Below are positions 2,256 through 54,015 of a DNA stretch of 64,000 nt, in pieces. The DNA is from Candidatus Aquitaenariimonas noxiae (GTDB taxonomy: Bacteria > Omnitrophota > Gorgyraeia > Aquitaenariimonadales > Aquitaenariimonadaceae), in assembly GCA_002780005.1 (NCBI GenBank), contig PEWV01000075.1:14133-78132 (forward strand). Reading direction: 5' to 3'. How positions within the stretch are numbered: position 1 is the first letter of the stretch; every line of letters starts with the position of its first letter. Below the pieces are notes generated by a model that saw only the letters and a program-made list of their open reading frames with translations, was not told the origin of the DNA and did no database searches. Made by a program: the position numbers and the translations under genes.

Positions 2256-2966
2256 TCAAACCATTAATTTTCCCGTTGCAATTAAAAAATATTCGCCTAT
2301 AAGTATAAGGATCCAGCCAAATACCTTCTTTATCCGTTCAAGCCATAAGCCGGCCTTTGGCATCGACGCTATTAAACCCGTAAATGTGCCTAGAACTACT
2401 AGAAGAAAGCCCATGCCAAGAGCAAATACGAACATAAGCGTCATGCCGAATAGAACATTCTGTTTCGTAGCCACATACCCTAATATAACAGCTAAAGGCG
2501 GAGCCGTGCATGGCCCGACTACGAGACCTGAGGCCGCGCCGACAAGAAAGCTCGGCACAATACCTTTGCCTTTTGAAAGGAATTTGCCTTGGGTCAAAAA
2601 TTTTGGTATTGGTATCTCAAATACGCCAAGCATGGATAACCCCAGCAAAGCGCAAAGGTTCCCTACAAAAAAATTGGTCAAAGGGTTAGTCGCTATTCGG
2701 CCGAACAGGCTCCCCGTCAATGCGGCAATGCCGCCTAATACGGAATAAGCGAAAGCCATTCCAAAAACATAGAATAGGGATAATAAAAAAGCTTTGCCTT
2801 TTGATTTTACTCCGGAGGCGCCTATGTAGGAAATAGTTATGGGAATAATAGGATAAACGCAAGGGGTAAAACTTACTGCTACTCCTCCCGCAAAAGCTGC
2901 CAAATAGGCTAAAAGCGGAGCTCCTTCTATATACACTTCAAAGTTAGACAAGAGACCTTGTATCAC
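2256..2966 (-). CDS. ccdA: cytochrome c-type biogenesis/thiol-disulfide transporter CcdA (DsbD transmembrane domain)
   Basis: Polytopic membrane protein with conserved Cys in TM1 (FTPCVYP) and later TM (GPCTAPPL). Confidence 0.85.
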   Translation of the reverse strand: MIQGLLSNFEVYIEGAPLLAYLAAFAGGVAVSFTPCVYPIIPITISYIGASGVKSKGKAFLLSLFYVFGMAFAYSVLGGIAALTGSLFGRIATNPLTNFFVGNLCALLGLSMLGVFEIPIPKFLTQGKFLSKGKGIVPSFLVGAASGLVVGPCTAPPLAVILGYVATKQNVLFGMTLMFVFALGMGFLLVVLGTFTGLIASMPKAGLWLERIKKVFGWILILIGEYFLIATGKLMV

Positions 2967-3286
2967 AAAACACTCTCTATCTCAGATCTGAACTTTTCCT
3001 TTTGCGTAATGCCCATTATTCTTTTTACCTCTTCCTTGCCCTTGAATATTATAAAGGTAGGTATGGACATTACCCCGTAATTTGACGGCACTTGAGTATT
3101 GGCGCTTATATCGATCTTGCCAAAATCAGCCTTTCCGTTCAAATCTTCCGCTATATCTTTCAGAACAGGTTCCATCCTTTTGCACGGTTGGCACCAATCC
3201 GAGAAAAAATCAAGCACAAAAACTTTACCTGACCCTAAAACTAAATTTTCAAAATTTTCATCTGTAATGTTTTTTATATTTTCCAT
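2963..3286 (-). CDS. trx: thioredoxin
   Basis: 107 aa with WCQPC active-site motif; overlaps ccdA by 4 nt, suggesting translational coupling. Confidence 0.85.
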   Translation of the reverse strand: MENIKNITDENFENLVLGSGKVFVLDFFSDWCQPCKRMEPVLKDIAEDLNGKADFGKIDISANTQVPSNYGVMSIPTFIIFKGKEEVKRIMGITQKEKFRSEIESVL

Positions 3287-3822: not shown

Positions 3823-4971
3823 TTATTTATGCACCACTTTATTGTGTTTTTTGGTTTGACTGATTTTTGATTCTACGGAGCTAATAAGCTTATCAAATGA
3901 AACCTGAAATGCCTTAACGCCTTCGTCCTGGATCTCCTGGCAGGTCTTTTCTACGTTTATCCCAAAAGACGCCAAATCTTCTAAAACGTTTCTCGACCCT
4001 TCTAGATCATTTTCAATCCTAACACCCGGTTTACCATGATCCCTGAACGCTGCCAAGGTCGAATCCGGAATAGTGTTTATGCTCTGGGGCGCCACTAGTT
4101 CTTCAACGTACTTGACATCGCTGTATGATGGATTTTTCGTGCTCGTACTGGCCCATAAAACTTTCTGTATGCGCGCGTCGTTTTCCTGCAATTCGCCGAA
4201 ATTCTCATCAGAGAACAAGTCTTTAAAACGCTGATATATCATTTTAGTATGCGCAACGGCTGAGCGGCCTATCAAGGACTTGATTTTTAGGGATCTTGCT
4301 TTATCTTTTTCGATAACCAGTATTTTCTCCAGCATATTATCTATTTTTGTATCGAGGCGGCTTATAAATACGCTTGCCACGGAATTAACTCTGTCCAGGT
4401 CCTCGTCCCTCTTTAACCTATCTTTAAGGCCGTCAATATAAGCGTTAACGATAGCCTCATAATGCTGCATTGAAAAAAGCAGCGTCACATTCACGTTTAT
4501 GCCTTCGCTTATCAAAGTCTTGATAGCTTCCGGTGATTCTTTTGTGCCCGGGACTTTTATCATTATATTTTCTTTTCCTATGCGCTTAAATATCCTTTTA
4601 GCATCATTTATAGTCTTAGATACATCGTGCGCGTATTCCGGAAGCACCTCGATACTGACATAGCCGTCTTCACCTTTTGACCTCCTGAAAACGTCGTCCA
4701 AAATATCTGCAGCCATAGAAACATCACGAATGGTCAGTTCATCATAAATTTCTCTGGCACTTTTGCCGGATTTGATCAGTTCATAAATCTCTTCGTCGTA
4801 TTCCGTAGAGGAATTGATGGCGTTCTCGAATATAGACGGATTTGAGGTAACGCCGCGTATGCCGTCATCGCGTATCAATTTTTTAAGCCCGTCTCCGATC
4901 AAGAGAGACCTTTTGATATTGTCGTACCATGGGCTCTGTCCGAACTCTAACAATTTCTTTACAGGATTCAT
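3823..4971 (-). CDS. tal: transaldolase (long family-3 type)
   Basis: GVTSNPSIF motif and Schiff-base Lys context (IMIKVPGT); 382 aa. Confidence 0.85.
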   Translation of the reverse strand: MNPVKKLLEFGQSPWYDNIKRSLLIGDGLKKLIRDDGIRGVTSNPSIFENAINSSTEYDEEIYELIKSGKSAREIYDELTIRDVSMAADILDDVFRRSKGEDGYVSIEVLPEYAHDVSKTINDAKRIFKRIGKENIMIKVPGTKESPEAIKTLISEGINVNVTLLFSMQHYEAIVNAYIDGLKDRLKRDEDLDRVNSVASVFISRLDTKIDNMLEKILVIEKDKARSLKIKSLIGRSAVAHTKMIYQRFKDLFSDENFGELQENDARIQKVLWASTSTKNPSYSDVKYVEELVAPQSINTIPDSTLAAFRDHGKPGVRIENDLEGSRNVLEDLASFGINVEKTCQEIQDEGVKAFQVSFDKLISSVESKISQTKKHNKVVHK

Positions 4972-8698: not shown

Positions 8699-10390
8699 TT
8701 AATTATCGTTCCAGGAATTCTCTTCTACAGAAACACCGTTTAAACCCTGTGGTATGGAAGAATCCACTGCTGAAGCATCATAAGTTATTGTCGCAGGGCC
8801 TAGTGAATCGGAGAAGAATTGGCGTACCAAAAGAGAGCCGGTAACGCTCGAGTTTCCGTTAACTTGGGCCAGCCCCTCGGTTGAGTTTCCATATTGATAA
8901 ACTATGCCTGAAACAGACGCGCCGGAATTTATCTGCAGAGATTGGTTATTTCTGCCCCTGCTTATGACAGCCCCGCTTACCGTTGTGCCGGAATCTTTTA
9001 TCTGCAGCAGATTATTAGAAGCCGAACTTGCATAGTCTACATATAAGGTGCTACTTGTTACATAAGCCCCATCTTGAACGATAAGGCACCGCTGCGCGAT
9101 GATCACGGCACCGTTAATATTGGTAGTTGAATTTCTTATCGTTAACGCATCGCCTGTCCCGCTAGGGCTCCTGGAATATAAATAGCAGTTTCGATTTAAA
9201 GTTACGGATGTGTCAGCTTGACTTGAGTTTAAATTCATATCGCCACCCGACAGGAAATAAATATTCCCTCCGGACGGCGCAGCCGTAAAGGTCCCGGCAT
9301 CGGCGTTCGCATTGTGAATCAATATCTTTCCTTTGACAGAAGTAACTATATAGCCGTAACCGCCCACGTTAACCGTCCCATTTGTGTCAAAATCAGTATG
9401 TATATAGATCTCAAAATTATTTGAATTAATAGCTGCTGTTCCTTCCAGATTAAATGTGCGGGAGCAATTTATTCGATAATCGCGCGCGGTTATCTGGGCA
9501 TTCCCAGTCATATTGAAATCAGTGCTGGTGTTAATAGTGAAATTTGAGGCGTTCGAATCTATGCTCGAGCCGTTTTGAAGGTTAAAAGCCCTGCAGTTTA
9601 CAGTAAAATTGGTACCGGTGATGGAAAACCCATTGGTGTTTATATCTCTTCGGCTTATATTCTGGTTTGTCCAGTTTACGTTGCCGGTCAAGGTAAGATC
9701 GCCTGCGCCGGGGCTGGTATTAATATTTGCATCGTTAATGCGGGTGTTCCAACCCGACATCAAATTATCATAGTAAGCCGTATCCAGAGAGGGCATATCC
9801 GGGAATGACGGCTGAATTGCTTCGGTTGAATATGTACCTGTGCCGTCTATTGTCTCGCCTGAGCCATAATACACTTTACCTCCCGTTACAGAACACGGGG
9901 TATTTATACGCGAGCTGCCCACAGACCAATAGTCGCCTACTATTTGTGTCCCGCTGCCTGTTGTCGAAAAATCGAGTCTCGCGCTCGGACCGTCAAGCTG
10001 CCAAAACACGGCAAACAGGCATGCCTTCGGAGTCTTTTTGGCTGTCGAGCTTATCTGTCTTTGGATGATCTGGCCTGAATAACCCGATACTTTTCCGGTC
10101 ACAGTAAACGAAACATTGTTTGCGCTGGCGCTATTAATTGTTATGTCAAAAGTTCCTGAGCCAAGCTCTATCCCGGTTTGATCGGTTTCATCGGTCCAAT
10201 CGCTGTCGCTGGCTAATTTCTCCAAATACCAATCCCTTCCGCCTTCTACTGCAGCAAATGCCTCGACTCCTCCTGAAAAACCCAGACTGCTTTCCGTGCC
10301 TTGAGTCAAAAGGGAAAAGGCAACTAACGCCACGAGTGAACACGCCAATACCAAAAAAATCATCAGAATTAACGCTACACCTTTTTCCAT
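8699..10390 (-). CDS. PilX-like / pilus tip-associated large secreted protein (Asn/Thr/Ser/Gly-rich, beta-helix-like repeats)
   Basis: N-terminus MEKGVALILMIFLVLACSLVALVAF matches the PilX_N-type hydrophobic segment. 563 aa rich in N/T/S/G. Translationally coupled to the upstream minor pilin (1-nt gap). Confidence 0.5.
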   Translation of the reverse strand: MEKGVALILMIFLVLACSLVALVAFSLLTQGTESSLGFSGGVEAFAAVEGGRDWYLEKLASDSDWTDETDQTGIELGSGTFDITINSASANNVSFTVTGKVSGYSGQIIQRQISSTAKKTPKACLFAVFWQLDGPSARLDFSTTGSGTQIVGDYWSVGSSRINTPCSVTGGKVYYGSGETIDGTGTYSTEAIQPSFPDMPSLDTAYYDNLMSGWNTRINDANINTSPGAGDLTLTGNVNWTNQNISRRDINTNGFSITGTNFTVNCRAFNLQNGSSIDSNASNFTINTSTDFNMTGNAQITARDYRINCSRTFNLEGTAAINSNNFEIYIHTDFDTNGTVNVGGYGYIVTSVKGKILIHNANADAGTFTAAPSGGNIYFLSGGDMNLNSSQADTSVTLNRNCYLYSRSPSGTGDALTIRNSTTNINGAVIIAQRCLIVQDGAYVTSSTLYVDYASSASNNLLQIKDSGTTVSGAVISRGRNNQSLQINSGASVSGIVYQYGNSTEGLAQVNGNSSVTGSLLVRQFFSDSLGPATITYDASAVDSSIPQGLNGVSVEENSWNDN

Positions 10391-10391
10391 A

Positions 10392-10991
10392 TTAAGAAAA
10401 TAGGTCCGAGACCTGTAGAATATTACGAAGCCTTATTTTTGTCCTGAAATAAACGGTATTGTTATTGGATGAGAGCGACATGTCAATTTGCACAAATCTT
10501 ATGTCAGTCGCCTGCGGGCTTACTAAAGGAGCTGGGATAACGTCTCCGTTCCCATCCAGGTATGAGAAGGTAAACGAGGAAACGTTTGAAACAAGCGTGT
10601 CGGCTGTGCCGTTATAGCTTCTTTCCAGATTTGATCCGTTAAGCTGGAATTGCATAGTATTATTATCTATGTCGACGAAACTATAGGAGGTAGCATTAGC
10701 TGTGATTACGCTTGTATTGTTTTTCAGACGACGTATCTCACGGCTCATTCTTCTAAAAGCTGTCTCGGCGCTTTGTGATAAATCTTTCCTATGTATGCTG
10801 TACTTATATGAGTCAACCAATTTAATAGCAACAGGGCCGCCGATACCTACTAATAGGCCTATGATAACTATGACCATTATTAGCTCGATCAGAGTAAACC
10901 CCGTTAGAGATGGGTTGTGTTCACCCATCGGACCTTTAATAGTGCTACGTTTAATGAAAAATTTACTTTTATCAATAATTATCTTGACCAT
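10392..10991 (-). CDS. minor (pseudo)pilin with prepilin-type N-terminal cleavage/methylation domain; 30-aa leader
   Basis: Leader ...EHNPSLTG then FTLIELIMVIVIIGLLVG (G-1, F+1, E+5). Confidence 0.8.
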   Translation of the reverse strand: MVKIIIDKSKFFIKRSTIKGPMGEHNPSLTGFTLIELIMVIVIIGLLVGIGGPVAIKLVDSYKYSIHRKDLSQSAETAFRRMSREIRRLKNNTSVITANATSYSFVDIDNNTMQFQLNGSNLERSYNGTADTLVSNVSSFTFSYLDGNGDVIPAPLVSPQATDIRFVQIDMSLSSNNNTVYFRTKIRLRNILQVSDLFS

Positions 10992-11091
10992 TTTTAGTAA
11001 GATATATTTTTATCTCTAACGGGGTAAACCCGTGCTTAGGTTTTAGGTGATAGGTTATAGGTGATAGGTGTTTTAACATTTTTAAATAGAA

Positions 11092-11568
11092 TCAGTTATT
11101 GGTTGCCAGCGTTACTGCCTCAACACTGGGAAATCCCGGGCGCGAAACTGTTATTTGGATTCTTTTATAGTTTGTAGAAGGGCTAGCGCTCAGCGTATTT
11201 AAATTTCCGCTGTCTACATAATAATAACTCACTTGATGTGAATAATCGCTGAAATTACCCGTGTACTCGGTCGGGCCCTCATTAACAACGTTAGAAAATC
11301 TCAAGTTCGTCACGCGTTCCAATTCGCTTTCTAATAGCGAAGACACTGCTATAAAATGTTCCGGTAAAAATGCGTTTTGCACTGATTCTATAATTACAAC
11401 CGAGACGGGAATTAATATAACAGAAGCAATAACGATCGTCATTATTAATTCTATAAGAGTAAGCCCTTTATCGGAGTTTCGATATTTCCCGCTTTTGCGG
11501 GATCCCGCACATGTATGTCCAAGGCTTGGTATAGGCGGGACGTATTTCGAATTTCGTATTTTTCTCAC
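11092..11568 (-). CDS. minor (pseudo)pilin; 34-aa leader
   Basis: ...NSDKG then LTLIELIMTIVIASVILIP. ATG overlaps the stop of the upstream pilin (ATGA), supporting this start. Confidence 0.75.
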   Translation of the reverse strand: MRKIRNSKYVPPIPSLGHTCAGSRKSGKYRNSDKGLTLIELIMTIVIASVILIPVSVVIIESVQNAFLPEHFIAVSSLLESELERVTNLRFSNVVNEGPTEYTGNFSDYSHQVSYYYVDSGNLNTLSASPSTNYKRIQITVSRPGFPSVEAVTLATNN

Positions 11569-12119
11569 TGTATATACACCCTGCCTGTTCCTCTCTCAAC
11601 CATTATATTTTTAGGACCTGTGATCGTTACGTTAGCCGGATTATTAAGCGCGGTACCACTGCCAGAACCGGCATCATAGCTATAGGGGTCCCCCCATTTG
11701 TCAAATGCCAGATCCTTATTGTTGTCATTAAAATAGACCTCTGTTATGTCAATGCCTTGGAATTCGCTCTCGTTAAACTGAACGGTGTAGTTATTTTTCG
11801 TTAATGGGTTGATCACTAAACTCCAATTTCCCGGGGTATCTTCTATGTAGACTGAGTAGCGATGTTGTGACGTGCTAAATGAGATCCGAGTCCTTTTTTG
11901 AATACTTACGGCTAGCGATTGCGCGTATCTTATGTCCGATTGAATTTTTTGCGCTGCCATATCCGAGCGCATAGCCGGCATATCGACCATCCTTGCGCTT
12001 GCCAGAACAGCCAAAATGCCGATAATGGCCATTACCATTATAAGCTCGAGAAGGGTAAACCCCGTTAGAAAGGCCCTACCCTTTTCATCAGGAATTGAAA
12101 TTCTGTTTGTTTCATCCAT
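11565..12119 (-). CDS. minor (pseudo)pilin (GspH/FimT-like); 19-aa leader
   Basis: ...GRAFLTG then FTLLELIMVMAIIGILA. Confidence 0.8.
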   Translation of the reverse strand: MDETNRISIPDEKGRAFLTGFTLLELIMVMAIIGILAVLASARMVDMPAMRSDMAAQKIQSDIRYAQSLAVSIQKRTRISFSTSQHRYSVYIEDTPGNWSLVINPLTKNNYTVQFNESEFQGIDITEVYFNDNNKDLAFDKWGDPYSYDAGSGSGTALNNPANVTITGPKNIMVERGTGRVYIQ

Positions 12120-12234
12120 ACTATCTATAAATCGCGCACCCCATTAAAAAGCATCTTTGTAATGAGATAAAGCTTTCTAACGGGGTAAACCCTCGTTTCA
12201 TATATAACATTTTCGGATGCTTCCCAATTACAGA

Positions 12235-25532: not shown

Positions 25533-26216
25533 TTACTTAAAAATAAAGCCTGTCTGGTTAGACCAGAATAAAAGATCGAGTTCTTCGACCGGAATATTTA
25601 AAGAATCGGAGAATTTTCGCATTTTGCTTTCGATTTCGAGATAGGTTTTTTTCGTTATGGCGCGCGGTATTTCTTTTATAACTTTATATCGCTTTAAATT
25701 CTTCAATATATGTACGTCCAGTATGGACATATTTCTGCCAAGGCCTATATTCCTCAAAAAATGGCTCGCTTCTTTATATCCGAGGCCCTTTACGTTCTTA
25801 ACAAGCCATTCCCTAACTCTAAAAGTATCATTTATATCTAATATTTTCTTTATCTCTATCCTTTTCCCGTGTTTGAAAATATTACGCGCGCCTATCAGGT
25901 AACCTGTCTTATTATTAGGGAACCTGACTTTTTGCAGCTTAGACCTCACGGCGCGCTTGCCGCCATTAAAAAGCAGTCTTGATCTTTTCAGTTCTTTAAT
26001 AGCCTGGCCGCAATAAACTGCTTTTGATTGAGGGGTCAATAAACAAAAACATAGTTCTGAAAAAACATTTTCATCGTCGGATTTGTGAATATTTTCAAAC
26101 TCTTTTAGCCTTTGTTTTATGTGATGCTTTTTATCCTTGTAAACCTTGATCAGGTCTTTCGCCCCGTTAGAAATACAAATTTCTTTACAATTATTATAAT
26201 TATAGCGTTCTGCCAT
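25533..26216 (-). CDS. N-glycosylase/DNA lyase (Ogg2-type 8-oxoguanine DNA glycosylase, HhH-GPD)
   Basis: 227 aa; GYKEASHFLRNIGLG...ILDVHIL HhH region. Start overlaps trxB stop (TAATG). Confidence 0.5.
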   Translation of the reverse strand: MAERYNYNNCKEICISNGAKDLIKVYKDKKHHIKQRLKEFENIHKSDDENVFSELCFCLLTPQSKAVYCGQAIKELKRSRLLFNGGKRAVRSKLQKVRFPNNKTGYLIGARNIFKHGKRIEIKKILDINDTFRVREWLVKNVKGLGYKEASHFLRNIGLGRNMSILDVHILKNLKRYKVIKEIPRAITKKTYLEIESKMRKFSDSLNIPVEELDLLFWSNQTGFIFK

Positions 26217-27145
26217 TATCTACTCTGATTTAAGTATCTAAATGCCGAAAGAGCGGCCTTCGACCCTTCTCCGGCTGCTATTACAATTTGTTTTTCGGGC
26301 ACGTTTGTGACGTCGCCTGCGGCGAATATACCAGGCACATTAGTGCTGTTATGGCAATCTACTTTAATTTCACCCAACTCGTTCCTATCCACTTCCTTTG
26401 CAAATCCTGAATTTGGTATAAGGCCGATTTCCACAAAAATACCCTGGACAGGCAGGGTTTCTTCTTTCCCTTCTCTTTTTACCCTTATGCTCCTAACCGC
26501 CTTATCGCCGGTTATGGCCGTAACCTCGGCGCTGTTCAAAATAGTTACCTTATCGCTTTCTCTTATCTTTTCCTGCATTATCGGATCACCTGTGATGTTG
26601 GGCGTGATATTAATAAGGTATAAGCGCTTGGCTATTTTGATCAATTGAAGGGCGGCATCTAGGGCAGAATTCCCGCCGCCTATGATCGCCACATCCTTAC
26701 CTGAAAATAACGGACCGTCGCATGTAGCGCAGTAGGTAACGCCTCTATTTTTAAATTCTTTCTCTCCCGGAACGCCCAATTCTTTTGATTTTTTGCCTGA
26801 TGCTATAACTAAAGTCTTTGCCTCGTAGAGGCCCCTATTGGTTTTAACCGAAATAATATTATCTTTCCTTTTAACTTCTATAGCTTCTTCGCCTTCCCTT
26901 ACATTGTTTCCATATTTTTTCATATGCTCTTCAAATTTACTAGCCAGTTCCGGGCCTGTTATAAACTGATACCCTGTATAATTTTCTATATCCCCGCTCC
27001 ATGCCGCCTGGCCGCCTATATCCTTCGTGACAACTAAAAAAATTATTCTTTTACGGGCCGCGTATACGCTGGCAGTTATGCCGGCAGGGCCGGCGCCTAT
27101 TATTATAAGATCGTATATGTTTGACATGTTATGATAAAATTCCAA
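26216..27145 (-). CDS. trxB: thioredoxin-disulfide reductase
   Basis: IIGAGPAGITASVYAARK FAD motif; CATCDG redox centre; second GGGNSALD NADPH motif. Confidence 0.9.
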   Translation of the reverse strand: MEFYHNMSNIYDLIIIGAGPAGITASVYAARKRIIFLVVTKDIGGQAAWSGDIENYTGYQFITGPELASKFEEHMKKYGNNVREGEEAIEVKRKDNIISVKTNRGLYEAKTLVIASGKKSKELGVPGEKEFKNRGVTYCATCDGPLFSGKDVAIIGGGNSALDAALQLIKIAKRLYLINITPNITGDPIMQEKIRESDKVTILNSAEVTAITGDKAVRSIRVKREGKEETLPVQGIFVEIGLIPNSGFAKEVDRNELGEIKVDCHNSTNVPGIFAAGDVTNVPEKQIVIAAGEGSKAALSAFRYLNQSR

Positions 27146-27149
27146 AACA

Positions 27150-27330
27150 CAAATTCCAAATTACAATCTGAATTCGAAATCCGAATATCGAATATCGAAA
27201 CAATATCAAATGACAAAAATTCAAATGATCAAAACTATTGTTTTGGTAATTTGAACATTCTAGTTTCGAATTTGTTTCGGATTTCGTGCTTCGAATTTCG
27301 TATTTTATAACTTTGGTCATTGTTTATTGT
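27150..27330. promoter_or_regulatory. long AT-rich imperfect palindrome with TTCGAA-containing 10-bp-phased repeats, centred on CAAAAC-TATT-GTTTTG (27230-27245)
   Basis: Arms GAATTCGAAATCCGAATATCGAATATCGAAACAA and TTTCGAATTTGTTTCGGATTTCGTGCTTCGAATT are near reverse complements. Lies between the grx stop and trxB start. Confidence 0.5.
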
Positions 27331-27347
27331 ATATTGTAATTTTTTCA

Positions 27348-41615: not shown

Positions 41616-41677
41616 GTTTACCCCGTTAGAGATTTATTCTCCAACGGGATAAACCCCAATCTCTAACGGGGTTTAAC
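41616..41677. repeat. hairpin built from two inverted copies of the ATCTCTAACGGGGT motif (14-bp perfect stem, 25-nt loop containing a third degenerate copy)
   Basis: ACCCCGTTAGAGAT 41620-41633 and ATCTCTAACGGGGT 41659-41672. Confidence 0.8.
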
Positions 41678-42203: not shown

Positions 42204-43577
42204 TTATTTTTTTTCCAGGATGCATTTTGACATTCTACCGCAGGGTTTGGCCGGGTAATTCCCATCAAAACAGGCCGTGCAGAATTCCTCTTTCGGGATC
42301 GGCATGGATTTGAGCATACCTTCTTTGCTTAAATACTCAAGGCTATCCAGACCGATAAAATCTTTTATCCATTTTATGCTGTGATTCGACGCTATTAATT
42401 CCTTTTTAGTCGGGAAATCTATACCGTAAAAACACGGGAACCTAAGCGGCGGACAGCTTACCCGCATATGGACTTCTTTAGCTCCAGCTTCCCGCAGTGT
42501 CTTTACCCTGACCCTGCTCGTTGTCCCGCGGACTATAGAATCTTCTATAATAACTGTGCGCTTATTTCTTAGGACATCTTTTATCGGATTAAGTTTTACC
42601 CTGACTCTGAAATCCCTTATAAACTGTGACGGCTGAATAAATGTCCTCCCAACATAATGGTTCCTTATCAAGGCTGCTTCATATGGGATCCCGGATTCTT
42701 CTGAAAAACCTAAAGCGGCGTAATTCCCCGAATCGGGCACAGGCATCACGAAATCGCCTTTAGCGGGAAATTCTTTTGCCAGCTGCTTGCCCAAACGCTT
42801 CCGGGTTAAATAAACATTCTGGCCAAAAATATTGCTATCGGGCCTGGCAAAATATATATATTCAAATATGCAAAACGAATGTTTCTTTCCAGAAAAAGGT
42901 TTTTGAGACTCTATGCCTTTCTTGCTTATAAAAACTATCTCACCTGGCTCAACTTCCCTGATATATTCCGCATTTATCAAGTCTAGCGCGCAGGTTTCGC
43001 TCGCCAATACATAGGCATCGTCCAATTTACCGATACAAAGCGGCCTCCATCCGCCCGGATCCCTTGCTCCGGCCAAGTATCCGTTAAGCATGAGTACAAG
43101 CGAATACGCCCCTTCAAGCCCGGATAAGGCGTCAACAAGATTTTGCCTGTGGTCCGGGCTTTGTGATTTAGCTAAAAGATGAACTATTGTTTCGGAATCC
43201 ATTGTAGTCTGAAAGATAGAACCCCTACCTTCCATATCATGTCGCAGCTTGAAAGCATTTGTAAGGTTACCGTTATGAGCGATAGCTATATGCCCCTTAC
43301 TATGGTTTACAGAGAACGGCTGGATGTTTTTGGAAATGCTTGAACCTGTCGTTGAATAGCGAACATGTCCTATCGCTACGTCGCCGCGCAGCGACTTTAT
43401 GCTTTTTTCATCAAATACATCTCCGACCAGGCCCATACCCTTATGGGACATGATCTTTTTTTCGCTTGAGACAACTATGCCTGCGCTTTCTTCGCCGCGA
43501 TGCTGGAGCGCGTAAAGGCCCAGATAAGTAAGCCGCGCCGCGTCTTTATGCCCATATATACCGAATATCCCGCACAT
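42204..43577 (-). CDS. purF: amidophosphoribosyltransferase
   Basis: MCGIFGIYGH Ntn-Cys start; PRT domain; C-terminal Fe-S Cys. Confidence 0.9.
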   Translation of the reverse strand: MCGIFGIYGHKDAARLTYLGLYALQHRGEESAGIVVSSEKKIMSHKGMGLVGDVFDEKSIKSLRGDVAIGHVRYSTTGSSISKNIQPFSVNHSKGHIAIAHNGNLTNAFKLRHDMEGRGSIFQTTMDSETIVHLLAKSQSPDHRQNLVDALSGLEGAYSLVLMLNGYLAGARDPGGWRPLCIGKLDDAYVLASETCALDLINAEYIREVEPGEIVFISKKGIESQKPFSGKKHSFCIFEYIYFARPDSNIFGQNVYLTRKRLGKQLAKEFPAKGDFVMPVPDSGNYAALGFSEESGIPYEAALIRNHYVGRTFIQPSQFIRDFRVRVKLNPIKDVLRNKRTVIIEDSIVRGTTSRVRVKTLREAGAKEVHMRVSCPPLRFPCFYGIDFPTKKELIASNHSIKWIKDFIGLDSLEYLSKEGMLKSMPIPKEEFCTACFDGNYPAKPCGRMSKCILEKK

Positions 43578-43581
43578 ACAC

Positions 43582-44394
43582 TTATATCCTCACAGGAATG
43601 CCTCTATCCTTAAGGTATTCCTTTGCCTCTCTGATCGAATATTTCCCGTAATGAAAAATAGATGCCGCAAGAACGGCATCAGCCCTGCCTGTTGTTAGCG
43701 CCTCATAAAGATGTTCTAAATCCCCTGCGCCGCCCGATGCTATAACCGGGATATTTACGGTTTCTGATATAGCCTTTGTCAGCTTCAGGTCATAACCCGC
43801 TGTCGTTCCGTCCATATCCATGCTGGTAAGCAGGATCTCGCCGGCCCCTGATCGTTCTGCCTTTTTTGCCCATTCGACCGCGTCAAGGCCGACCGGTTTT
43901 CTACCGCCGTAGGCATATACTTCCCATTTCTTTTTTTTGCTATGGACTATGGACTGTGGGCTGTGGACTAACTTCGCGTCTATGGCAACCACTATGCACT
44001 GGCTGCCAAATTCCTCGGATGCTTCTTTAATCAATGTAGGGTTTTCTATTGCCGCTGTATTTATAGAAACCTTATCGGCCCCAGATTTCAAGAGCTGTCT
44101 TATATCGCTTATATTTCGAATGCCGCCTCCAACCGTCAAAGGTATAAAGACCTGCTCTGCTGTTTTTATGACCACATCTAAAAATGCCTGGCGTTTTTCA
44201 ACGCTTGCTGTTATGTCTAAGAATACTACTTCGTCCGCGCCTTCTTTGGAATAGAAGGCTGCTGTCTTGACAGGGTCTCCCGTGTCTTTAAGGTCCAGGA
44301 AATTAATACCCTTCACAACTCTTCCGTCTTTTACATCCAGGCATGGTATTATTCTTTTAGTCAGCCCCGTTAGAAACTTAGCTCTTTCTACCAT
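43582..44394 (-). CDS. hisF: imidazole glycerol phosphate synthase cyclase subunit HisF
   Basis: [16 protein letters not shown] ... full HisF barrel. Carries the N-terminal extension [13 protein letters not shown] and an internal [14 protein letters not shown] segment encoded by heptamer repeats. Confidence 0.9.
43941..43968. repeat. 4 x 7-nt tandem repeat T(A/G)TGG(A/G)C inside hisF, next to a T8 run (43931-43938)
   Basis: TATGGAC TATGGAC TGTGGGC TGTGGAC. Confidence 0.8.
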
Positions 44395-44466
44395 AATATT
44401 TATTCTCCATCCCCATTAAGAAAACATAAGCCATATTCAGCAAACCAAAACGTTTCTAACGGGGTT
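44365..44466. repeat. inverted pair of the CCCCGTTAGAAAC / GTTTCTAACGGGG motif bracketing the hisF start codon
   Basis: 13-bp perfect inverted repeat: 44366-44378 (inside hisF codons 6-10) and 44452-44464 (5' UTR). Confidence 0.8.
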
Positions 44467-45085
44467 AGCATAGTTTGCAAAAATTCTCCAAAAATTTAAG
44501 GCCCAATTCTGAGCTTTTTTCTGGGTGAAACTGTACGCCCCAAATATTATCCTTATTTACTGCAGAGGCGAAATCTTTCCCATACTTGGTCGTGCCGATT
44601 ATAATTCCTTTATCATCCGGATCAACATAATAGGTGTGAACGAAGTAGAAATATGAATTATCAGCTATGTCTTCAAACAGCTGTGGACTGTGGACTGTGG
44701 ACTGTGGACTTTTTATTTTAACCTCGTTCCATCCCATATGCGGCGTCTTCAATTGCAGATCAAATCTCTTAACTTTTCCTTTTAATATATCGAGGCCTCT
44801 ATGAGTGCCATGCTCCTCGCTTTCCGTAAATAATAATTGCAAACCAAGGCATATGCCTAAAAAAGGTTTGCCGTCTTTAATGATCCTGGTTATAGCAGGC
44901 AGGATATCTAATTCCGTAAGGTTAGCCATGGCCCTGGCAAAGGCGCCTACCCCGGGCAGAACAACGGCTTTAGCGTCGCTCAAATCATTAGGATTATCCG
45001 TAACCTTTGCCTGGGCGCCTACCATCTGGAAAGCTTTACTGACGCTTTTCAGGTTTCCCATGCCATAGTCGATTATCGCTATCAT
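44465..45085 (-). CDS. hisH: imidazole glycerol phosphate synthase glutaminase subunit HisH
   Basis: Class I GATase with GICLGLQLL catalytic Cys and HPEKS. Confidence 0.9.
   Translation of the reverse strand: MIAIIDYGMGNLKSVSKAFQMVGAQAKVTDNPNDLSDAKAVVLPGVGAFARAMANLTELDILPAITRIIKDGKPFLGICLGLQLLFTESEEHGTHRGLDILKGKVKRFDLQLKTPHMGWNEVKIKSPQSTVHSPQLFEDIADNSYFYFVHTYYVDPDDKGIIIGTTKYGKDFASAVNKDNIWGVQFHPEKSSELGLKFLENFCKLC
44682..44709. repeat. perfect 4 x 7-nt tandem repeat TGTGGAC inside hisH (encodes SPQSTVHSPQ)
   Basis: 44682-44709 is TGTGGAC x4 exactly. Confidence 0.9.
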
Positions 45086-45088
45086 ATA

Positions 45089-46629
45089 TTACTCCCACTC
45101 TATCGTAGAAGGCGGCTTGGATGAAATATCATAAACAACCCTGTTGATGCCTTTGACTTCATTTATAATACGGCTCGATATGGTTTCAAGCAACTCGTAG
45201 GGAAGCTTGGCCCAGTGAGCGGTCATTGCGTCTTCGCTCGTCACAGCCCTTACCGCAACCACATTCTCGTAAGTCCTCTCATCACCCATAACCCCTACTG
45301 TTTTTATAGGTAACAATACGCAGAATGACTGCCATAATTTTCTATAAAGGCCACTTCGTTTTATTTCATCTATCAATATCCAGTCGGCTTCCCGTAAAAG
45401 GTCAAGCCTATTCTTAGTGATCTTGTCTATTACGCGAACCGCAAGGCCCGGCCCCGGGAAAGGCTGTCTATAAATAGCTTCTTCCGGCATACCTAGTTCT
45501 TTTCCGAGTAGCCTTACCTCATCTTTAAATAAATCCTTAAGAGGCTCTATCAGTTCAAAATCCATGCGGGAAGGAAGTCCTCCTACATTGTGATGTGTCT
45601 TAATGGTCGCCGAAGGCCCGCCTATCGGGGATTTTGATTCTATTACATCAGGGTATAACGTGCCCTGGGCTAAAAATTTTATTTTCCCCATTTTTTTTGC
45701 TTCTTTCTCAAAAATTCTTATAAATAACTTGCCTATGATCTTGCGTTTTTTCTCAGGGTCCGTGACCCCTTTTAAACCGTTCAAAAAAACTTTACTCGCG
45801 TCGATTACTTTCAGGTTTATACGAAAGTTTTTTCTGAATCTTTTCTCGACAAGCTCGGACTCATGTTTGCGCAACAGCCCGTTATCGATAAAGATGGCGA
45901 CAAGATTTTTACCTATAGCCTTATGAAGAAGCACTGCCAACACCGAAGAATCCACGCCGCCGCTTAACCCGCATAGAACTTTTTCACCGTTTATCCGGTT
46001 TCTTAATTCTTTAATCGTGTTTTGCGCAAAAGAATACATATCCCACGATGGCTTGCATCCTGCTATATTAAATAGAAAATTTTTCAATATGATCTTCCCT
46101 TTTGGCGTGTGAACGACCTCGGGATGGAACTGAACCCCGAAAAAGTTTTTTTCAGGATGTTCCATAGCGGCGACCGGAGAATTTGAGGTGGAGCCTATTA
46201 CCCTAAAGCCCTTTGGCAATTTTGTTATCCTGTCTCCGTGGCTCATCCAGATCGTCTCTTTCGAAAGTAAATCTTTAAACAATGTCTTTTTTGATCTAAT
46301 GCTAAGGGTCGCCTTTCCATATTCCCGTGTCTTAGCCTTAGCAACATTCCCTTCCAATAATTTGGCCATAAGCTGCGCGCCGTAGCATATGCCGAGAACG
46401 GGTATGCCCATATTAAAAATATCCTTATCACATACGGGAGATTTTGCTGCGGTAACGCTGGCAGGGCCGCCTGACAAAATAACCGCTTTTGGTTTGCGAG
46501 CCGAAAGTTCATCCGCCCCTATATTGTAAGGCACTATTCCAGAGTAAACCTTATGCTCGCGTATCCTGCGGGTAATAAGATGGGTGTATTGAGAGCCAAA
46601 ATCTAAAATCGCTATCCAGTCTCTATCCA
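45089..46629 (-). CDS. guaA: GMP synthase (glutamine-hydrolysing)
   Basis: GATase domain (ILDFGSQYT, catalytic GICYG) plus ATP-PPase SGGVDSSV and C-terminal dimerisation domain. Start revised to GTG at 46629 (GGAGGA SD). The ORF-track N-terminal extension overlaps carB. Confidence 0.88.
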
Positions 46630-48287
46630 CGGGACTCGTCCTCCATTTCGTAAGTAGAGTAAAAATACGGCGTATAAGCTTCGAACTCGGCGCCGCAGGT
46701 ATCAACCAGCTTATATGTTGTTTTTATGCCAAATTTGTTGCGCAACTTTCGAATATTATCTTCTTTTGTGCTGACTAAATTTGCGATCTGCTTATCGCTA
46801 AAACCAAACTGTTTTGCTTCGAAAAGCAAGCTCTTAAACATATTGGTATTATATTTACTTTTTGCTTTTTTGATCTTCTTCTCAAGGTCCACTATCTCTT
46901 CAATGTTATGAAGGAACCATCTGTCTATTTTTGTATGCTCGTAGATTTCATCTATATTCATCTTATTTTTTATGGCATATTTTATATAAAAAATCCTCTC
47001 CGCATTCGGGGTTTTTAATCTATCTATAAGTTGTTCGCGTGATACATCAAATTTTAAATCTTCCAAACCGGACACGCCTATCTCAAGTGACCTTAACCCC
47101 TTTTGCAGCGACTCTTTAAAAGTCCTTCCGATAGACATAGCCTCGCCTACGGATTTCATAGATATCGTGAGCGTTGAATCCGCCTGGGAGAATTTTTCAA
47201 ACGTAAAACGAGGAATTTTAACGACACAATAATCGATAGTAGGCTCAAAACATGCCGGCGTTTCCTTCGTAATATCATTCGGGATCTCATCAAGCGTATA
47301 CCCCACGGCCAGTTTCGCTGCTATCTTTGCAATAGGAAACCCCGTTGCCTTGGAAGCCAGGGCCGAACTCCTAGAGACCCTGGGATTCATTTCTATGACT
47401 ACCATTCTACCACTATCGGGGTGAACGGCAAACTGAATATTTGAACCTCCGGTCTCTACGCCGATCTCTCTAATGCAGGCTATCGCGGCATCGCGCATCT
47501 TTTGATATTCCCTATCCGTGAGGGTCTGCACCGGGGCAACTGTAATTGAATCGCCGGTATGGACCCCCATTGGATCAAAGTTTTCTATTGAACATATGAT
47601 AACAACATTATCTCTTTTATCTCTCATCACTTCAAGCTCGAATTCTTTCCAGCCGATAACCGATTCCTCTATTAATATCTCGCTTATCATGCTCGACTCA
47701 AGGCCTCGTTGGGCAATTTTCTTAAACTCCTCTATATTATATGCCACGCCGCCGCCTGTACCGCCCAGTGTGAAGCTCGGACGCACAATTACGGGGAAAC
47801 TGATCCTGCTTATTATCTCGTATGCTTCTTTTAACGTATGGGCTTCTCCGCTTTGGGGCAGATCAAGTCCGATCTTCTGCATTGCTTCTTTAAAAAGCTG
47901 CCTATTTTCGGCCTTTTTAATAGCTTTAATGTTTGCGCCTATAACCTCTACGCCATATTTATCAAAAATTCCGTTTTCGGCCACTTTCACGGTGACATTC
48001 AAGGCCGTCTGGCCTCCGAGCGTAGGCAAAATAGCGTCCGGTTTTTCTTTTTCTATTATTCTTTCAACTATTTCCGGAGTAATAGGCTCAATATATGTTT
48101 TATCCGCCATAACCGGGTCCGTCATTATGGTAGCCGGGTTACTATTCAATAAAACCACTTCAAATCCTTCCGACCTTAATACCTTGCACGCCTGGGTGCC
48201 GGAATAGTCAAATTCGCACGCCTGGCCTATTATGATAGGACCGGAACCGATTATGAGAATCTTTTTTATGTCTGTACGTTTTGGCAT
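46623..48287 (-). CDS. carB: carbamoyl-phosphate synthase large subunit, N-terminal half only (split carB)
   Basis: 554 aa starting [24 protein letters not shown]. Ends ...[20 protein letters not shown], just before the second synthetase domain would begin. guaA follows immediately. Confidence 0.85.
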
Positions 48288-48289
48288 TT

Positions 48290-48366
48290 ATTTTAGCGTT
48301 TAGGGGTTAGCGTCTAGCGTTTAGTACTTTTACTAATCGCTAGCCGCTAATCGCTAGTCGCTGATC
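48290..48366. repeat. compound palindrome of TAGCG-containing repeats in the carA-carB intergenic region
   Basis: TTAGCGTTTAG / TTAGCGTCTAG direct repeats, a CTAGCGTTTAGTA-CTTT-TACTAATCGCTAG inverted core (48314-48343), then TAATCGCTAG(C/T)CGC x2. Confidence 0.7.
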
Positions 48367-48369
48367 CTT

Positions 48370-49458
48370 TCACTTACGCTTTCTTGTTTTCTCCATCAAT
48401 TTGACAAACTCATCAAACAAATACTCCGCGTCATGGGGGCCGGGCGAGGCCTCGGGGTGAAATTGCACGGAGAAAATCGGAAGCTTCTTATGCCTCATCC
48501 CTTCCGATGTTTTATCATTCAAATTTATATGCGTAGTTTCCATCTCTTTTTTATTTAAAGAATCTATATCAACACAAAAACCGTGGTTTTGTGCCGTAAT
48601 AGCTATTTTGCCTGTCTTTAGATCCTTTACCGGATGATTGGCGCCATGATGCCCGAATTTTAACTTGTATGTTTTTCCGCCAAAGGCCAATCCCAGTATC
48701 TGATGTCCGAGACAGATACCGAATATCGGACATTTCCCTACCAAGTTTTTCACGGTTTCAACTACGTAAGGAACTCCTTCCGGGTCCCCGGGGCCGTTTG
48801 AAAGCAGGATCCCGTCAGGCTTAAAAGCCATGATATCTCCTGCGCCTGTCTTTGCCGGGACAACTGTGACCCGGCAATTTCTTCCAGCCAGCTCCCTTAA
48901 TATATTAAATTTAACTCCACAATCTATTACCACAACTTTATATTTTCCTTTGTTGCTCCATTCCCTTACTTTATTAAGGCTGACTTCTTTAACCAGATCC
49001 CTGCCGATAAGACCTTTGGAGGATCTCGCCTTCTGTATCAAACTTTTATCATCCAAGTCTTCGGTGGATAAGACCGCTTTCATCGCACCTTTTAACCTTA
49101 TATGCCTTGTAAGCGCGCGGGTGTCTATGCCTTCAATGCCTATTATGTCGTTTTGTTGAAGGTATTCCTCCAGATCCAACTGGGAGCGCCAATTGCTTGA
49201 AATGCGGCTACGCTCTCTTACTACAAATCCTTCCACAAACGGTTTGCGCGATTCCATATCATCGCTGTTAATGCCGTAATTACCTATCAACGGATATGCC
49301 ATTGTAACAATCTGGCCCTTGTAGGAGGGGTCCGTCAGGATCTCCTGATAACCGGTCATTGAGGTATTAAAAACCACTTCTCCGTATGTGGTTCCTTCGG
49401 CCGCGAACGACTTGCCTTTGAATATCTTGCCATCTTCTAAAACCAATATAGCATTCAT
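48370..49458 (-). CDS. carA: carbamoyl-phosphate synthase small (glutaminase) subunit
   Basis: 362 aa; GICLGHQ catalytic Cys; class I GATase. Confidence 0.9.
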
Positions 49459-49459
49459 A

Positions 49460-53318
<3,859 letters not shown>

Positions 53319-53319
53319 A

Positions 53320-54015
53320 TTATTTACCTTTCAGCCATTTCAGTGTAGATTTAAAAATTAAGGAGCCGTGATCGGACCCAAGTAGTTTCTCAGCGCTTCT
53401 TTCCGGATGAGGCATCATCCCTAATACATTACCCTGTTTATTTATAATACCGGCAACATTGCCTATGGCTCCATTTGGGTTAAATCTATCGCCAACCTCT
53501 CCTTGTTCGCTGCAGTAACGAAAAACAATCTGCTTATTTTCTGTAAGGTTTTTAAGCCCTTTTGTATCGATATAGTAGTTACCCTCATTATGGGCTATTG
53601 GGATCTTTAAAATTTGATCCCTTTTGCCCAAATTTGTAAATGGCGTAGCATTGTTTTCTAACTTTATATGTACATGCTTACAAATAAAATGAAGGTTTTT
53701 GTTTCTTAGCATCGCGCCGGGTAGCAGGCCGGCTTCCAGTAATATTTGAAAACCGTTACAAATTCCAATAACCAACCCTCCTCTATGGGCAAATCTAGTC
53801 ACCGATTTCATCACAGGAGAAAATCGAGCCACCGCGCCAGTTCTCAGATAGTCGCCATAACTGAACCCCCCCGGTAATACCAAACAATCATATGCATCCA
53901 CTTTGGTATTTTTGTGCCAGATATATTCCGCAGGCTGCTTTAAAATATCTCTGATCGCATAGAAGCAATCTTGTTCGCAATTAGAACCTGGAAAAACTAT
54001 AACACCGAATTTCAT
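53320..54015 (-). CDS. purQ: phosphoribosylformylglycinamidine synthase glutaminase subunit PurQ
   Basis: GICNGFQ catalytic Cys; HPER. Confidence 0.9.

Follow-up and report, generated by a model that had tools for sequence, protein, structure and literature searches.

Why do two adjacent genes that encode the two subunits of one biosynthetic enzyme both carry, inside their coding sequences, a tandem array of the same 7-nt unit? The genes are hisF and hisH, for the subunits of the glutamine-dependent imidazole-glycerol-phosphate synthase, and they lie in a 64,000-nt stretch of DNA (hereafter the window) from Candidatus Aquitaenariimonas noxiae, a groundwater bacterium of the Candidatus Omnitrophica (contig PEWV01000075.1, positions 14,133 to 78,132 of the forward strand). 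The original prediction, made from the sequence alone, had proposed either a spreading mini-repeat or a contingency locus. We consider it likely that the arrays are tolerated, translated heptamer inserts in the enzyme's two most permissive loops, one of them inherited and the other homogenised by slippage, and that the hisH array is a frameshift hot spot and no selected switch. Other loci and sequences are cited below by L and P numbers.

Structure of the two arrays

The two genes, their arrays and an adjoining homopolymer run are as follows (aa, amino acids; ORF, open reading frame).

44465..45085, minus strand: hisH, 206 aa, intact; TIGR01855, 237.7 bits; NCBI PIU40909.1
43582..44394, minus strand: hisF, 270 aa as an ORF, intact; TIGR00735, 389.1 bits; NCBI PIU40908.1
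44681..44710, minus strand: hisH array, perfect (GTCCACA)x4.3, in the loop after the GWNEV strand
43940..43970, minus strand: hisF array, degenerate, 4.4 copies, 83% match, at the tip of the beta5 hairpin
43931..43938, minus strand: A8 run (T8 on the plus strand), encoding KKKK in hisF

In the coding direction the hisH array is AGT CCA CAG TCC ACA GTC CAC AGT CCA CAG, which encodes SPQSTVHSPQ; viewed on the plus strand it has period 7 and the unit CTGTGGA/TGTGGAC. The hisF array, 740 nt away, reads GTCCACA GCCCACA GTCCATA GTCCATA GC, that is, four units interrupted by three substitutions, and also encodes a 10-residue peptide. There are only five copies of TGTGGAC in the 64 kb, every one of them within these two arrays, and the hisH array is the sole perfect array of at least three copies at any period from 4 to 15 in the window (a shuffled-sequence control contained no perfect arrays at periods 6-15). 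Both arrays lie inside ORFs, and as their 7-nt unit is not divisible by 3, slippage by one or two units changes the reading frame. The original prediction had described a perfect (TGTGGAC)4 in hisH at 44682-44709, an imperfect 4x7-nt array in hisF, the two encoded peptides (SPQSTVHSPQ and the hisF 10-mer) and the T8 run at 43931-43938, all of which we confirmed, with array boundaries of 44681-44710 and 43940-43970.

At the protein level the arrays coincide with insertions. In an alignment of the window HisF to the HisF-LUCA structure 4evz there is a single gap, of 10 residues, which corresponds exactly to the array plus the lysines. The insert starts four residues past the invariant Asp of the AID motif, which we take to be the catalytic Asp130 of Thermotoga HisF, and is located at the hairpin tip following strand beta5. 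The array region of HisH is a 6-residue insertion relative to Vibrio HisH (4gud) and a 13-residue insertion relative to Thermotoga HisH (1gpw_B). AlphaFold2 models of the two proteins have mean pLDDT (predicted local distance difference test) values of 89.4 and 83.2, with coil at HisH residues 124-134 (pLDDT <50 at 129-131) and at HisF residues 143-156 (pLDDT <50 at 146-152). Values below 50 are confined to the two inserts and to the HisF N-terminus, where residues 1-9 are doubtful. According to these models, both arrays are in-frame insertions translated as disordered surface loops.

The same two loops are expanded in most homologues

Comparison with orthologues, which the original prediction had suggested, showed that both loops are longer than minimal in most homologues, and that they contain heptamer arrays in the orthologues whose DNA was examined. 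Among 119 HisH homologues, mostly from Omnitrophota, the segment HMGWN...YFYFVH has 27-30 residues in 36 and is longer in 83; these longer loops have up to 23 extra residues, and many of them have a 7-aa repeat period. The corresponding HisF segment has 20-22 residues in 37 of 120 homologues and is expanded in the other 83, to as many as 61 residues (up to +41), by inserts of 10-41 aa that are unrelated to the minimal HisF loop. Within Omnitrophota, therefore, the arrangement is not "very unusual", as it had been called. By examining the DNA, which included that of five hisH orthologues, we found arrays of at least six other heptamer units at the two loops in other Omnitrophota–for example, the hisH loop has (AARACAG)x7 in L212, (CAGAAGA)x3.4 in L213 and an A-rich array in L215, and L214 hisH has a perfect (AATGCAA)x4 together with a second array, (AGGATTC)x7. 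Further units at the orthologous hisH/hisF sites include (AGCCATC)x4 and an (AACCAGT) type.

Two-armed relatives of the hisF insert

Many HisF orthologues have the sequence LVHSPQS(I/T)VH-R/N, then a short basic spacer, and then LSTIDYRLST-KKW. At the DNA level the insert in two of these orthologues and in the window reads:

L216: TTA (GTCCACA)x4 GAGAAAAT (CTATCGA)x3 CTATCAA CTAAAAAG
L218: TTG GTCCACG GTCCACA GTCCATA GTCCATA GAAAAAGA (CTATCGA)x4 CTAAAAAATGG
Window: TTA GTCCACA GCCCACA GTCCATA GTCCATA GCAAAAAAAAGAAATGG

The window hisF has an L218-type left arm, in which two GTCCATA units are kept, followed directly by an A-run and TGG, and the left arms of L218 and the window have a common GTCCAYR pattern. 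We had considered that the right arm (peptide LSTIDYRLST) might be an exact reverse complement of GTCCACA, and this was ruled out because its DNA unit is CTATCGA, which is complementary to the left-arm variant GTCCATA at 6 of 7 positions. The L218 segment is predicted to form a stepped hairpin (-25 kcal/mol), and L217 hisF has a similar two-arm design made of other units, (AGCCAAG/AGCAAAG)x4 and (CTACGCT)x4 (-30 kcal/mol). The species with a related hisF insert are only about 71-78% identical to the window HisF. From these alignments we infer that the window hisF array was once the left half of an ancestral insert with two arrays, that a deletion between A-runs removed the right arm, and that the A8 run is probably the fused leftovers of the A-rich spacer and of the A-run beyond the lost right arm. 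An array inherited from an ancestral insert in this way would be old and degenerate, and so a poor substrate for slippage.

History and stability of the hisH array

A 68%-identical hisH orthologue, in L263, has an array at the same site made of a different unit. Its sequence there is AAAATAAA (GTCCACG)x3 GTCCACA GATATT, and the window sequence is AAAATAAAAA (GTCCACA)x4 GCTGTT. The reading frames through the two arrays differ, giving STVHGPRST in L263 and SPQSTVHSPQ in the window, and the upstream A-run is 2 nt shorter in L263, a difference that restores the frame. The units are alike within a species and different between species, which is the mark of concerted evolution by repeated contraction and expansion. 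A 4-unit array (28 nt) by itself breaks the frame, so earlier frameshifts must have been offset by other changes. As part of the reading that we consider likely, the hisH array would be an old occupant of this loop that has been homogenised by replication slippage.

Some orthologous arrays are interrupted. In L264 the hisH gene (2315-2959) has a GTCCACG array split by a 21-nt palindrome; the perfect palindrome CTGCCTTGCCGGCAGGCAGGC lies inside the (GTCCACG)n and is translated in frame. Similarly, a perfect palindrome, CCCCGCACCAAAAAATGGTGCGGGG, lies inside the (AATCACC)n of L217 hisH (9241-9951) and is also translated in frame.

Counting JGI, ENA and Logan assemblies together, we found the exact 206-aa HisH protein on at least 23 contigs. 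From among these we retrieved contigs for a check of the arrays, so the sample was picked by exact HisH identity. The hisH array was identical in 10 of 10 retrieved contigs, and the hisF array, on which no selection had been made, was identical in all seven that cover its site; the contigs with identical arrays belong to a number of JGI and ENA assemblies, for which different assemblers were used. The 4-unit hisH allele is present on all 23 contigs that encode the exact protein and in a variant with one amino acid difference (P0002), and a 3-unit allele is present on one contig only. This contig, L131 (ENA ERZ27293391, 33 kb, MEGAHIT k141), matches the window at 99.94% identity across 18.3 kb, with four substitutions, none within the his genes. 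Its sole indel is the loss of exactly one heptamer from the hisH array, and the result is a 137-aa HisH (P0056) that matches exactly through ...SPQSTVHS and then ends in CLKT and a stop codon. The expectation that loss of a unit would break the frame is thus borne out by a natural allele.

We found no 1-, 5- or 7-unit hisH alleles among the HisH homologues. Within nine clusters of orthologues formed at 90% identity there was no variation in loop length, nor were there any in-frame variants with three units more or fewer; the length differences inside these clusters trace to start sites or contig ends. The lack of length change in the other assemblies and in the nine clusters makes the hisH array a mutational hot spot and not a demonstrated contingency locus.

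Contigs tend to end near the arrays. L005 and L006 both end at locus position 11108, about 40 nt before the hisF array, and several metagenome contigs (including P0256/P0257) stop within tens of bases of the hisF or hisH arrays, which suggests that heptamer arrays break assemblies and yield "partial" gene calls.

Period-7 arrays dominate in the window and in related loci

The window and seven other Omnitrophota loci (181 kb in total) were surveyed for imperfect arrays of roughly four copies with periods of 5-12. Period 7 accounts for 45 arrays and all other periods together for three, and the shuffled window has none. A metagenome scan for HisH relatives, mostly distant ones (identity of 62% or less), served only as a rough control for the period enrichment. 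One unit often recurs at neighboring sites: in L212-L215 a single unit is seen 3-7 times within a few kb, at both coding and non-coding sites. GAAGACA, for example, occurs three times in 5 kb of L212, an AGCTGTA-type unit about seven times in 2 kb of L213, and AGGATTC and AATGCAA 3-5 times each in L214. The presence of GTCCACA in both hisF and hisH is consistent with this local recurrence. To this extent the proposal of a spreading mini-repeat holds up as a general idea, in that period-7 arrays dominate and their units recur at neighboring sites.

Besides the two arrays inside genes, the window has about three intergenic array regions:

48292..48366, unstranded: inverted heptamer pair (TTTAGCG)n/(CTAATCG)n in the carA-carB spacer, forming a long hairpin
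27137..27340, unstranded: degenerate heptamer cluster, inverted (CGAATAT / TTCGAAA types), intergenic
11035..11073, unstranded: heptamer array (TAGGTGA/TAGGTTA) x about 5, intergenic

The predicted RNA fold of the carA-carB spacer (48285-48372) has an energy of -30.1 kcal/mol (z -5.6), and that of 27160-27305 has -41.9 kcal/mol (z -5.2). The neighbors of the intergenic arrays are genes for pseudopilins, an oxidoreductase, a rubrerythrin, a ZIP transporter and response regulators, and no TIGR02436 gene (see below) is among them. An Rfam scan of both strands of the whole window found no family at gathering score.

GTCCACA arrays are spread across phyla

(GTCCACA)3 is present in at least 120 stretches of genome-collection DNA, in Verrucomicrobiota, Bacteroidota, Planctomycetota including Kuenenia, Omnitrophota, Cyanobacteria, Saccharibacteria, Acidimicrobiia and others, and single metagenome-assembled genomes (MAGs) often have it at many loci. 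No frame of the unit, on either strand, contains a stop codon, a property of 590 of the 1170 heptamer classes. ORFs contain fewer GTCCACA arrays than expected, though still a large share of them: 44% of 131 arrays lie in ORFs of at least 600 nt, against a baseline of 74.5%. Selection acts on the peptide that they encode, as in long ORFs the hydrophilic SPQSTVH reading outnumbers CGLWTVD by 45 to 13.

GTCCACA itself is not special. In viral contigs, three composition-matched stop-free heptamers have 5, 16 and 11 stretches, compared to 12 for GTCCACA, and we rejected the idea of a specially over-represented unit on the ground that matched control heptamers are about equally common. Their equal frequency points to heptamer arrays in general, filtered by the peptide that they can encode. 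We also rejected a larger mobile element around the arrays, as the 131 GTCCACA arrays have no conserved flanks or target duplications.

Small TIGR02436 genes flanked by heptamer arrays

In L213 and L214 a small gene adjoins hisH or hisF. It belongs to PF05635/PF22296 and TIGR02436 ("four helix bundle protein") and also matches, less strongly, the diversity-generating-retroelement protein Avd. A phmmer search over all ORFs of the metagenome loci that we analysed gave six TIGR02436 genes (all PF05635):

L213, 11465-11989
L214, 9576-9995
L121 (Acidimicrobiaceae), 2614-3123
L053 (Chitinophagales), 3924-4360
L062 (Rickettsiales), about 100-600
L097, about 3830-4400

All six have a tandem array on each side, the downstream one being the reverse complement of the upstream one. 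The arms are GTCCACA/TGTGGAC in L121, L053 and L062, and an 8-mer array in L097; in L214 they are AGGATTC, the unit of the array about 350 nt away inside hisH. The genes are single-gene inserts within operons, between cas6 and cas4, cas10 and cmr3, guaA and hisH, or hisF and purF.

Finished plasmids of isolates gave an independent sample, picked by protein similarity only, in which 37 records were found and eight regions (L265-L272) were inspected. The record list is dominated by heterocystous cyanobacteria, the classic organisms of short tandemly repeated repetitive (STRR) sequences. Arrays of period 7 or 8, inverted in most cases, lie on one side or on both sides of the TIGR02436 gene in seven of the eight regions (Pseudanabaena, Nostoc punctiforme, Trichormus variabilis, Picosynechococcus, PCC 7120, Azospirillum and Riemerella), and the region in Calothrix PCC 7716 has no flanking arrays. 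In Pseudanabaena the flanking arrays are direct, not inverted. As a measure of background, pNPUN02 has about four array sites in 50 kb, one of them beside the TIGR02436 gene.

These associations raise the possibility, to which we give some credence though well short of an even chance, that the two-arm hairpins and solitary arrays are ORF-less derivatives or relics of TIGR02436 cassettes. We are a little more doubtful still about a broader version, in which heptamer arrays, those of the window included and perhaps also the cyanobacterial STRRs, would be terminal repeats or relics of a cryptic and widespread TIGR02436 mobile cassette, an element of the same kind as the intervening sequence (IVS) of 23S rRNA. 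If so, the cassette would settle in operon spacers, in rRNA helices and, without its ORF, in permissive loops of essential enzymes, HisF and HisH among them.

Origin of the arrays

Our proposal places the hisF and hisH arrays within a wider set of tandem heptanucleotide arrays that runs through the Omnitrophota. Arrays of this kind occur in three settings: as inverted intergenic pairs that form hairpins, as inverted flanks of small TIGR02436 (S23p, Avd-like) cassettes, and, without an ORF, inside the few insertion-tolerant loops of housekeeping proteins. In hisF, an old insert consisting of a left arm, an A-rich spacer and a right arm would have lost the right arm and been left with the A8 run. 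In hisH, an old array after the GWNxV strand would be kept uniform through replication slippage, the presumed mechanism; frame-shifted alleles arise, one of them seen in L131, and would normally be purged by selection or rescued by a compensating indel in the flanking A-run. The arrays inside genes would on this proposal be derived from hairpin or cassette elements and would not have arisen on the spot.

Several observations weigh against this proposal. Neither the hisF nor the hisH array has an inverted partner in the window, and the two coding arrays alone do not fold (z +0.5 and -0.3). At the 131 GTCCACA arrays there are no conserved flanks or target duplications (the maximum flank conservation is 38%), so that no mobile-element boundary can be made out, and the counts in viral contigs fit generic array formation as well as they fit a spreading family. 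The 3-unit hisH allele is based on one assembled contig, and slippage is its presumed cause. Our survey of the genome from which the window comes covers 64 kb only. Lastly, phmmer searches with two cassette proteins found no TIGR02436 gene among the ORFs of the window, so for the hisF and hisH arrays the link to cassettes is indirect.

The explanation that survives best beside ours, although we think it unlikely, is that the arrays are local microsatellites formed de novo by polymerase slippage with a preference for 7 nt, the sharing of a unit between hisF and hisH being secondary, for example by local template switching. It would account for the lack of conserved flanks or target duplications, for the seemingly equal frequency of any stop-free heptamer and for the different units at one site in different species, and a polymerase-linked preference for 7-nt slippage has been proposed (Mrazek 2007, as PMC4679880 summarises it). 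However, slippage alone does not produce an inverted partner and a spacer, which are common in hisF orthologues and intergenic spacers. The inserts also bring in 10-41 aa unrelated to the minimal loop, and identical units recur at several sites per locus and form the two arms of TIGR02436 cassettes in phyla that are not related.

A true contingency locus, with selected hypermutable switches that toggle the synthase in ultra-small and possibly host-dependent cells, is in our estimation improbable. In its favor, the unit is not a whole number of codons, the hisH array has no mismatches, GTCCACA is found in the genes for both subunits of the synthase, and an OFF allele (3 units, 137-aa HisH) exists in a near-identical strain from the same accession series as ON samples. 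Against this, the tract has only four units, whereas known phase-variable tracts are usually longer, and the 4-unit allele is found on at least 23 contigs as opposed to one with three units. The hisF array has three substitutions, is identical in 7 of 7 contigs and is common to distant species, and the frequent length polymorphism that a contingency locus would predict is seen neither in the assemblies of this population nor in the loops of the nine orthologue clusters. In addition, hisH and hisF are core histidine biosynthesis genes set amid amidotransferase genes, an atypical class for phase variation, unlike the surface, restriction-modification and host-interaction genes that gain from stochastic switching; the arrays sit exactly at sites where orthologues tolerate any insert; and unrelated units and palindrome-interrupted arrays are present in the same loops elsewhere, as expected of tolerated junk. 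On these grounds–the allele counts, the invariant clusters, the degenerate and inherited hisF array, the housekeeping genes and the insert-tolerant loops–we do not retain the contingency half of the original prediction.

We regard as highly improbable a function at the protein level, in which an SPQSTVH-type peptide would be selected in both subunits, for example as matched loops for complex formation or regulation. Both subunits of the heterodimer do have a common peptide alphabet, but the periodicity is 7 nt and not 3n; hisF, hisH and the L263 orthologue use different frames; at these sites other orthologues encode unrelated peptides or no insert; disorder is predicted for both segments; and GTCCACA also occurs outside coding sequence and within numerous unrelated ORFs in different phyla. 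An artefact of assembly or sequencing can be dismissed: short tandem repeats can be assembled wrongly, and L005 and L006 do end about 40 nt before the hisF array, but identical arrays are present in independent assemblies from several projects and assemblers, the ORFs are intact, and orthologous arrays are found in many species.

The reading of the arrays as tolerated inserts has consequences beyond this locus. Non-triplet microsatellites can persist for a long time in core enzymes if they are in disordered loops and made of stop-free units, at the cost of a standing supply of frameshift alleles, of which one that truncates HisH has already been seen. In the annotation of MAGs from Omnitrophota and similar organisms such inserts are to be expected, and truncated genes or contig breaks beside the arrays do not in themselves count as evidence of pathway loss.

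Other features of the locus

hisH and hisF are part of a row of co-directional genes on the minus strand (about 42204-54015): purS, purQ, purL, pyrG, carA, carB, guaA, hisH, hisF and purF. The purS-purF row comprises nearly all the glutamine amidotransferase enzymes. In related Omnitrophota loci the amidotransferase grouping is kept and its order is shuffled, with asnB added in L212. The carB gene (46623-48287, minus strand) encodes 554 aa with domains D1-D3 (a single ATP-grasp half), and there is an overlap between it and the 5' end of the guaA ORF. In L212 and L217 carB is full-length (about 1080 aa). Either the large subunit of carbamoyl-phosphate synthase is split in the window, or it is of half size.

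A second short repeat, CTAACGGGG, occurs nine times in the window (0.5 expected), mostly as inverted pairs 42-117 nt apart:

44365-44373 and 44456-44464
10899-10907 and 11016-11024
12060-12068 and 12177-12185
41621-41629 and 41663-41671
26162-26170 (single copy)

Three of the pairs bracket a ribosome-binding site, start codon and first codons, those of hisF and of two genes of the pseudopilin cluster; in both of the latter the prepilin-type L-T-G-F-T motif is encoded by the downstream copy. For the hisF pair the predicted fold has -34.4 kcal/mol (z -3.7) and would sequester the annotated hisF start. The HisF N-terminal extension, xxKF(L/P)TGL, is common to the HisF proteins of L212 and L213.

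Comparison with known repeat systems

The closest known systems are the heptanucleotide repeats of other bacteria. Those of the cyanobacterial STRR type were reportedly first described by Mazel and colleagues in 1990. Elhai and colleagues are said to have found, in 2008, small dispersed repeats inside heptamer arrays in Nostoc, of which the palindromes within the hisH arrays of L264 and L217 are reminiscent. The arrays described here resemble STRRs and other heptanucleotide simple sequence repeats (SSRs) in having tandem 7-nt units, usually in 3-6 copies and in many arrays with period 7 favored, and in having unit families specific to a genome and frequent inverted pairs capable of forming hairpins. 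They differ from STRRs in that the host is a member of the Omnitrophota and that arrays lie inside conserved housekeeping enzymes, at recurrent orthologous loops. Heptanucleotide SSRs are over-represented in bacteria, and STRRs, the GGGNATC repeats of Xanthomonas and Nostoc and the TAACTGA repeats of Beggiatoaceae are documented (PMC4679880, PMC4692102). To judge from the account of Mrazek et al. 2007 given in those two papers, the published families are mainly intergenic and under-represented in ORFs, and their origin and spread are unexplained. Our search of the literature, whose coverage is incomplete, found no description of GTCCACA arrays or heptamer repeats in Omnitrophota, of recurrent occupation of orthologous core-enzyme loops by arrays, or of a general link between heptamer arrays and TIGR02436.

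The TAACTGA direct repeats of marine Beggiatoaceae, Cyanobacteria and Bacteroidetes (MacGregor 2015, PMC4679880) are similarly scattered heptamers of 2-6 copies with a patchy distribution across phyla, and in both cases the stop-codon content of the unit governs its placement and orientation in ORFs. TAACTGA contains stops in the forward orientation and its arrays are concentrated just upstream of start codons (PMC4679880), whereas GTCCACA is stop-free and 44% of its arrays are in ORFs.

Like the contingency loci of host-adapted pathogens (Haemophilus and Neisseria), the hisH array is built of a unit that is not a whole number of codons, so that slippage alters expression, and a natural frameshift allele of it exists. 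Unlike them, it is a 4-unit tract in a housekeeping gene, with almost no polymorphism between assemblies and with a degenerate, ancient companion in hisF. In H. influenzae, 7-bp repeats are located in the promoters of hmw1A and hmw2A. HMW1A, with its 7-bp repeats, is called phase-variable in PMC8262952.

Repetitive extragenic palindromic (REP) sequences, bacterial interspersed mosaic elements (BIMEs) and elements resembling miniature inverted-repeat transposable elements (MITEs) are likewise short, non-autonomous hairpin repeats in operon spacers. The arms here are tandem 7-mers rather than a unique palindrome, and no conserved ends, target duplications or transposase were found. Two inverted arms that could pair are present in the hisF genes of L216-L218 and in the intergenic arrays of the window, and absent for the window hisF and hisH arrays.

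The 23S rRNA IVS offers a different comparison. An IVS with an S23p ORF is also present in Leptospira. The TIGR02436 loci resemble the IVS of Coxiella in that their inverted heptamer arrays could form an IVS-like stem. In Coxiella burnetii the 23S rRNA IVS has three tandem GACAGAT heptamers upstream of S23p, in a number that varies among strains (PMC4990558). The hisF and hisH arrays, by contrast, have no ORF and are in protein-coding sequence, not in rRNA. The association between arrays and TIGR02436 genes offers a testable handle both on the origin of heptamer repeats and on the role of the protein family of the 23S rRNA IVS.

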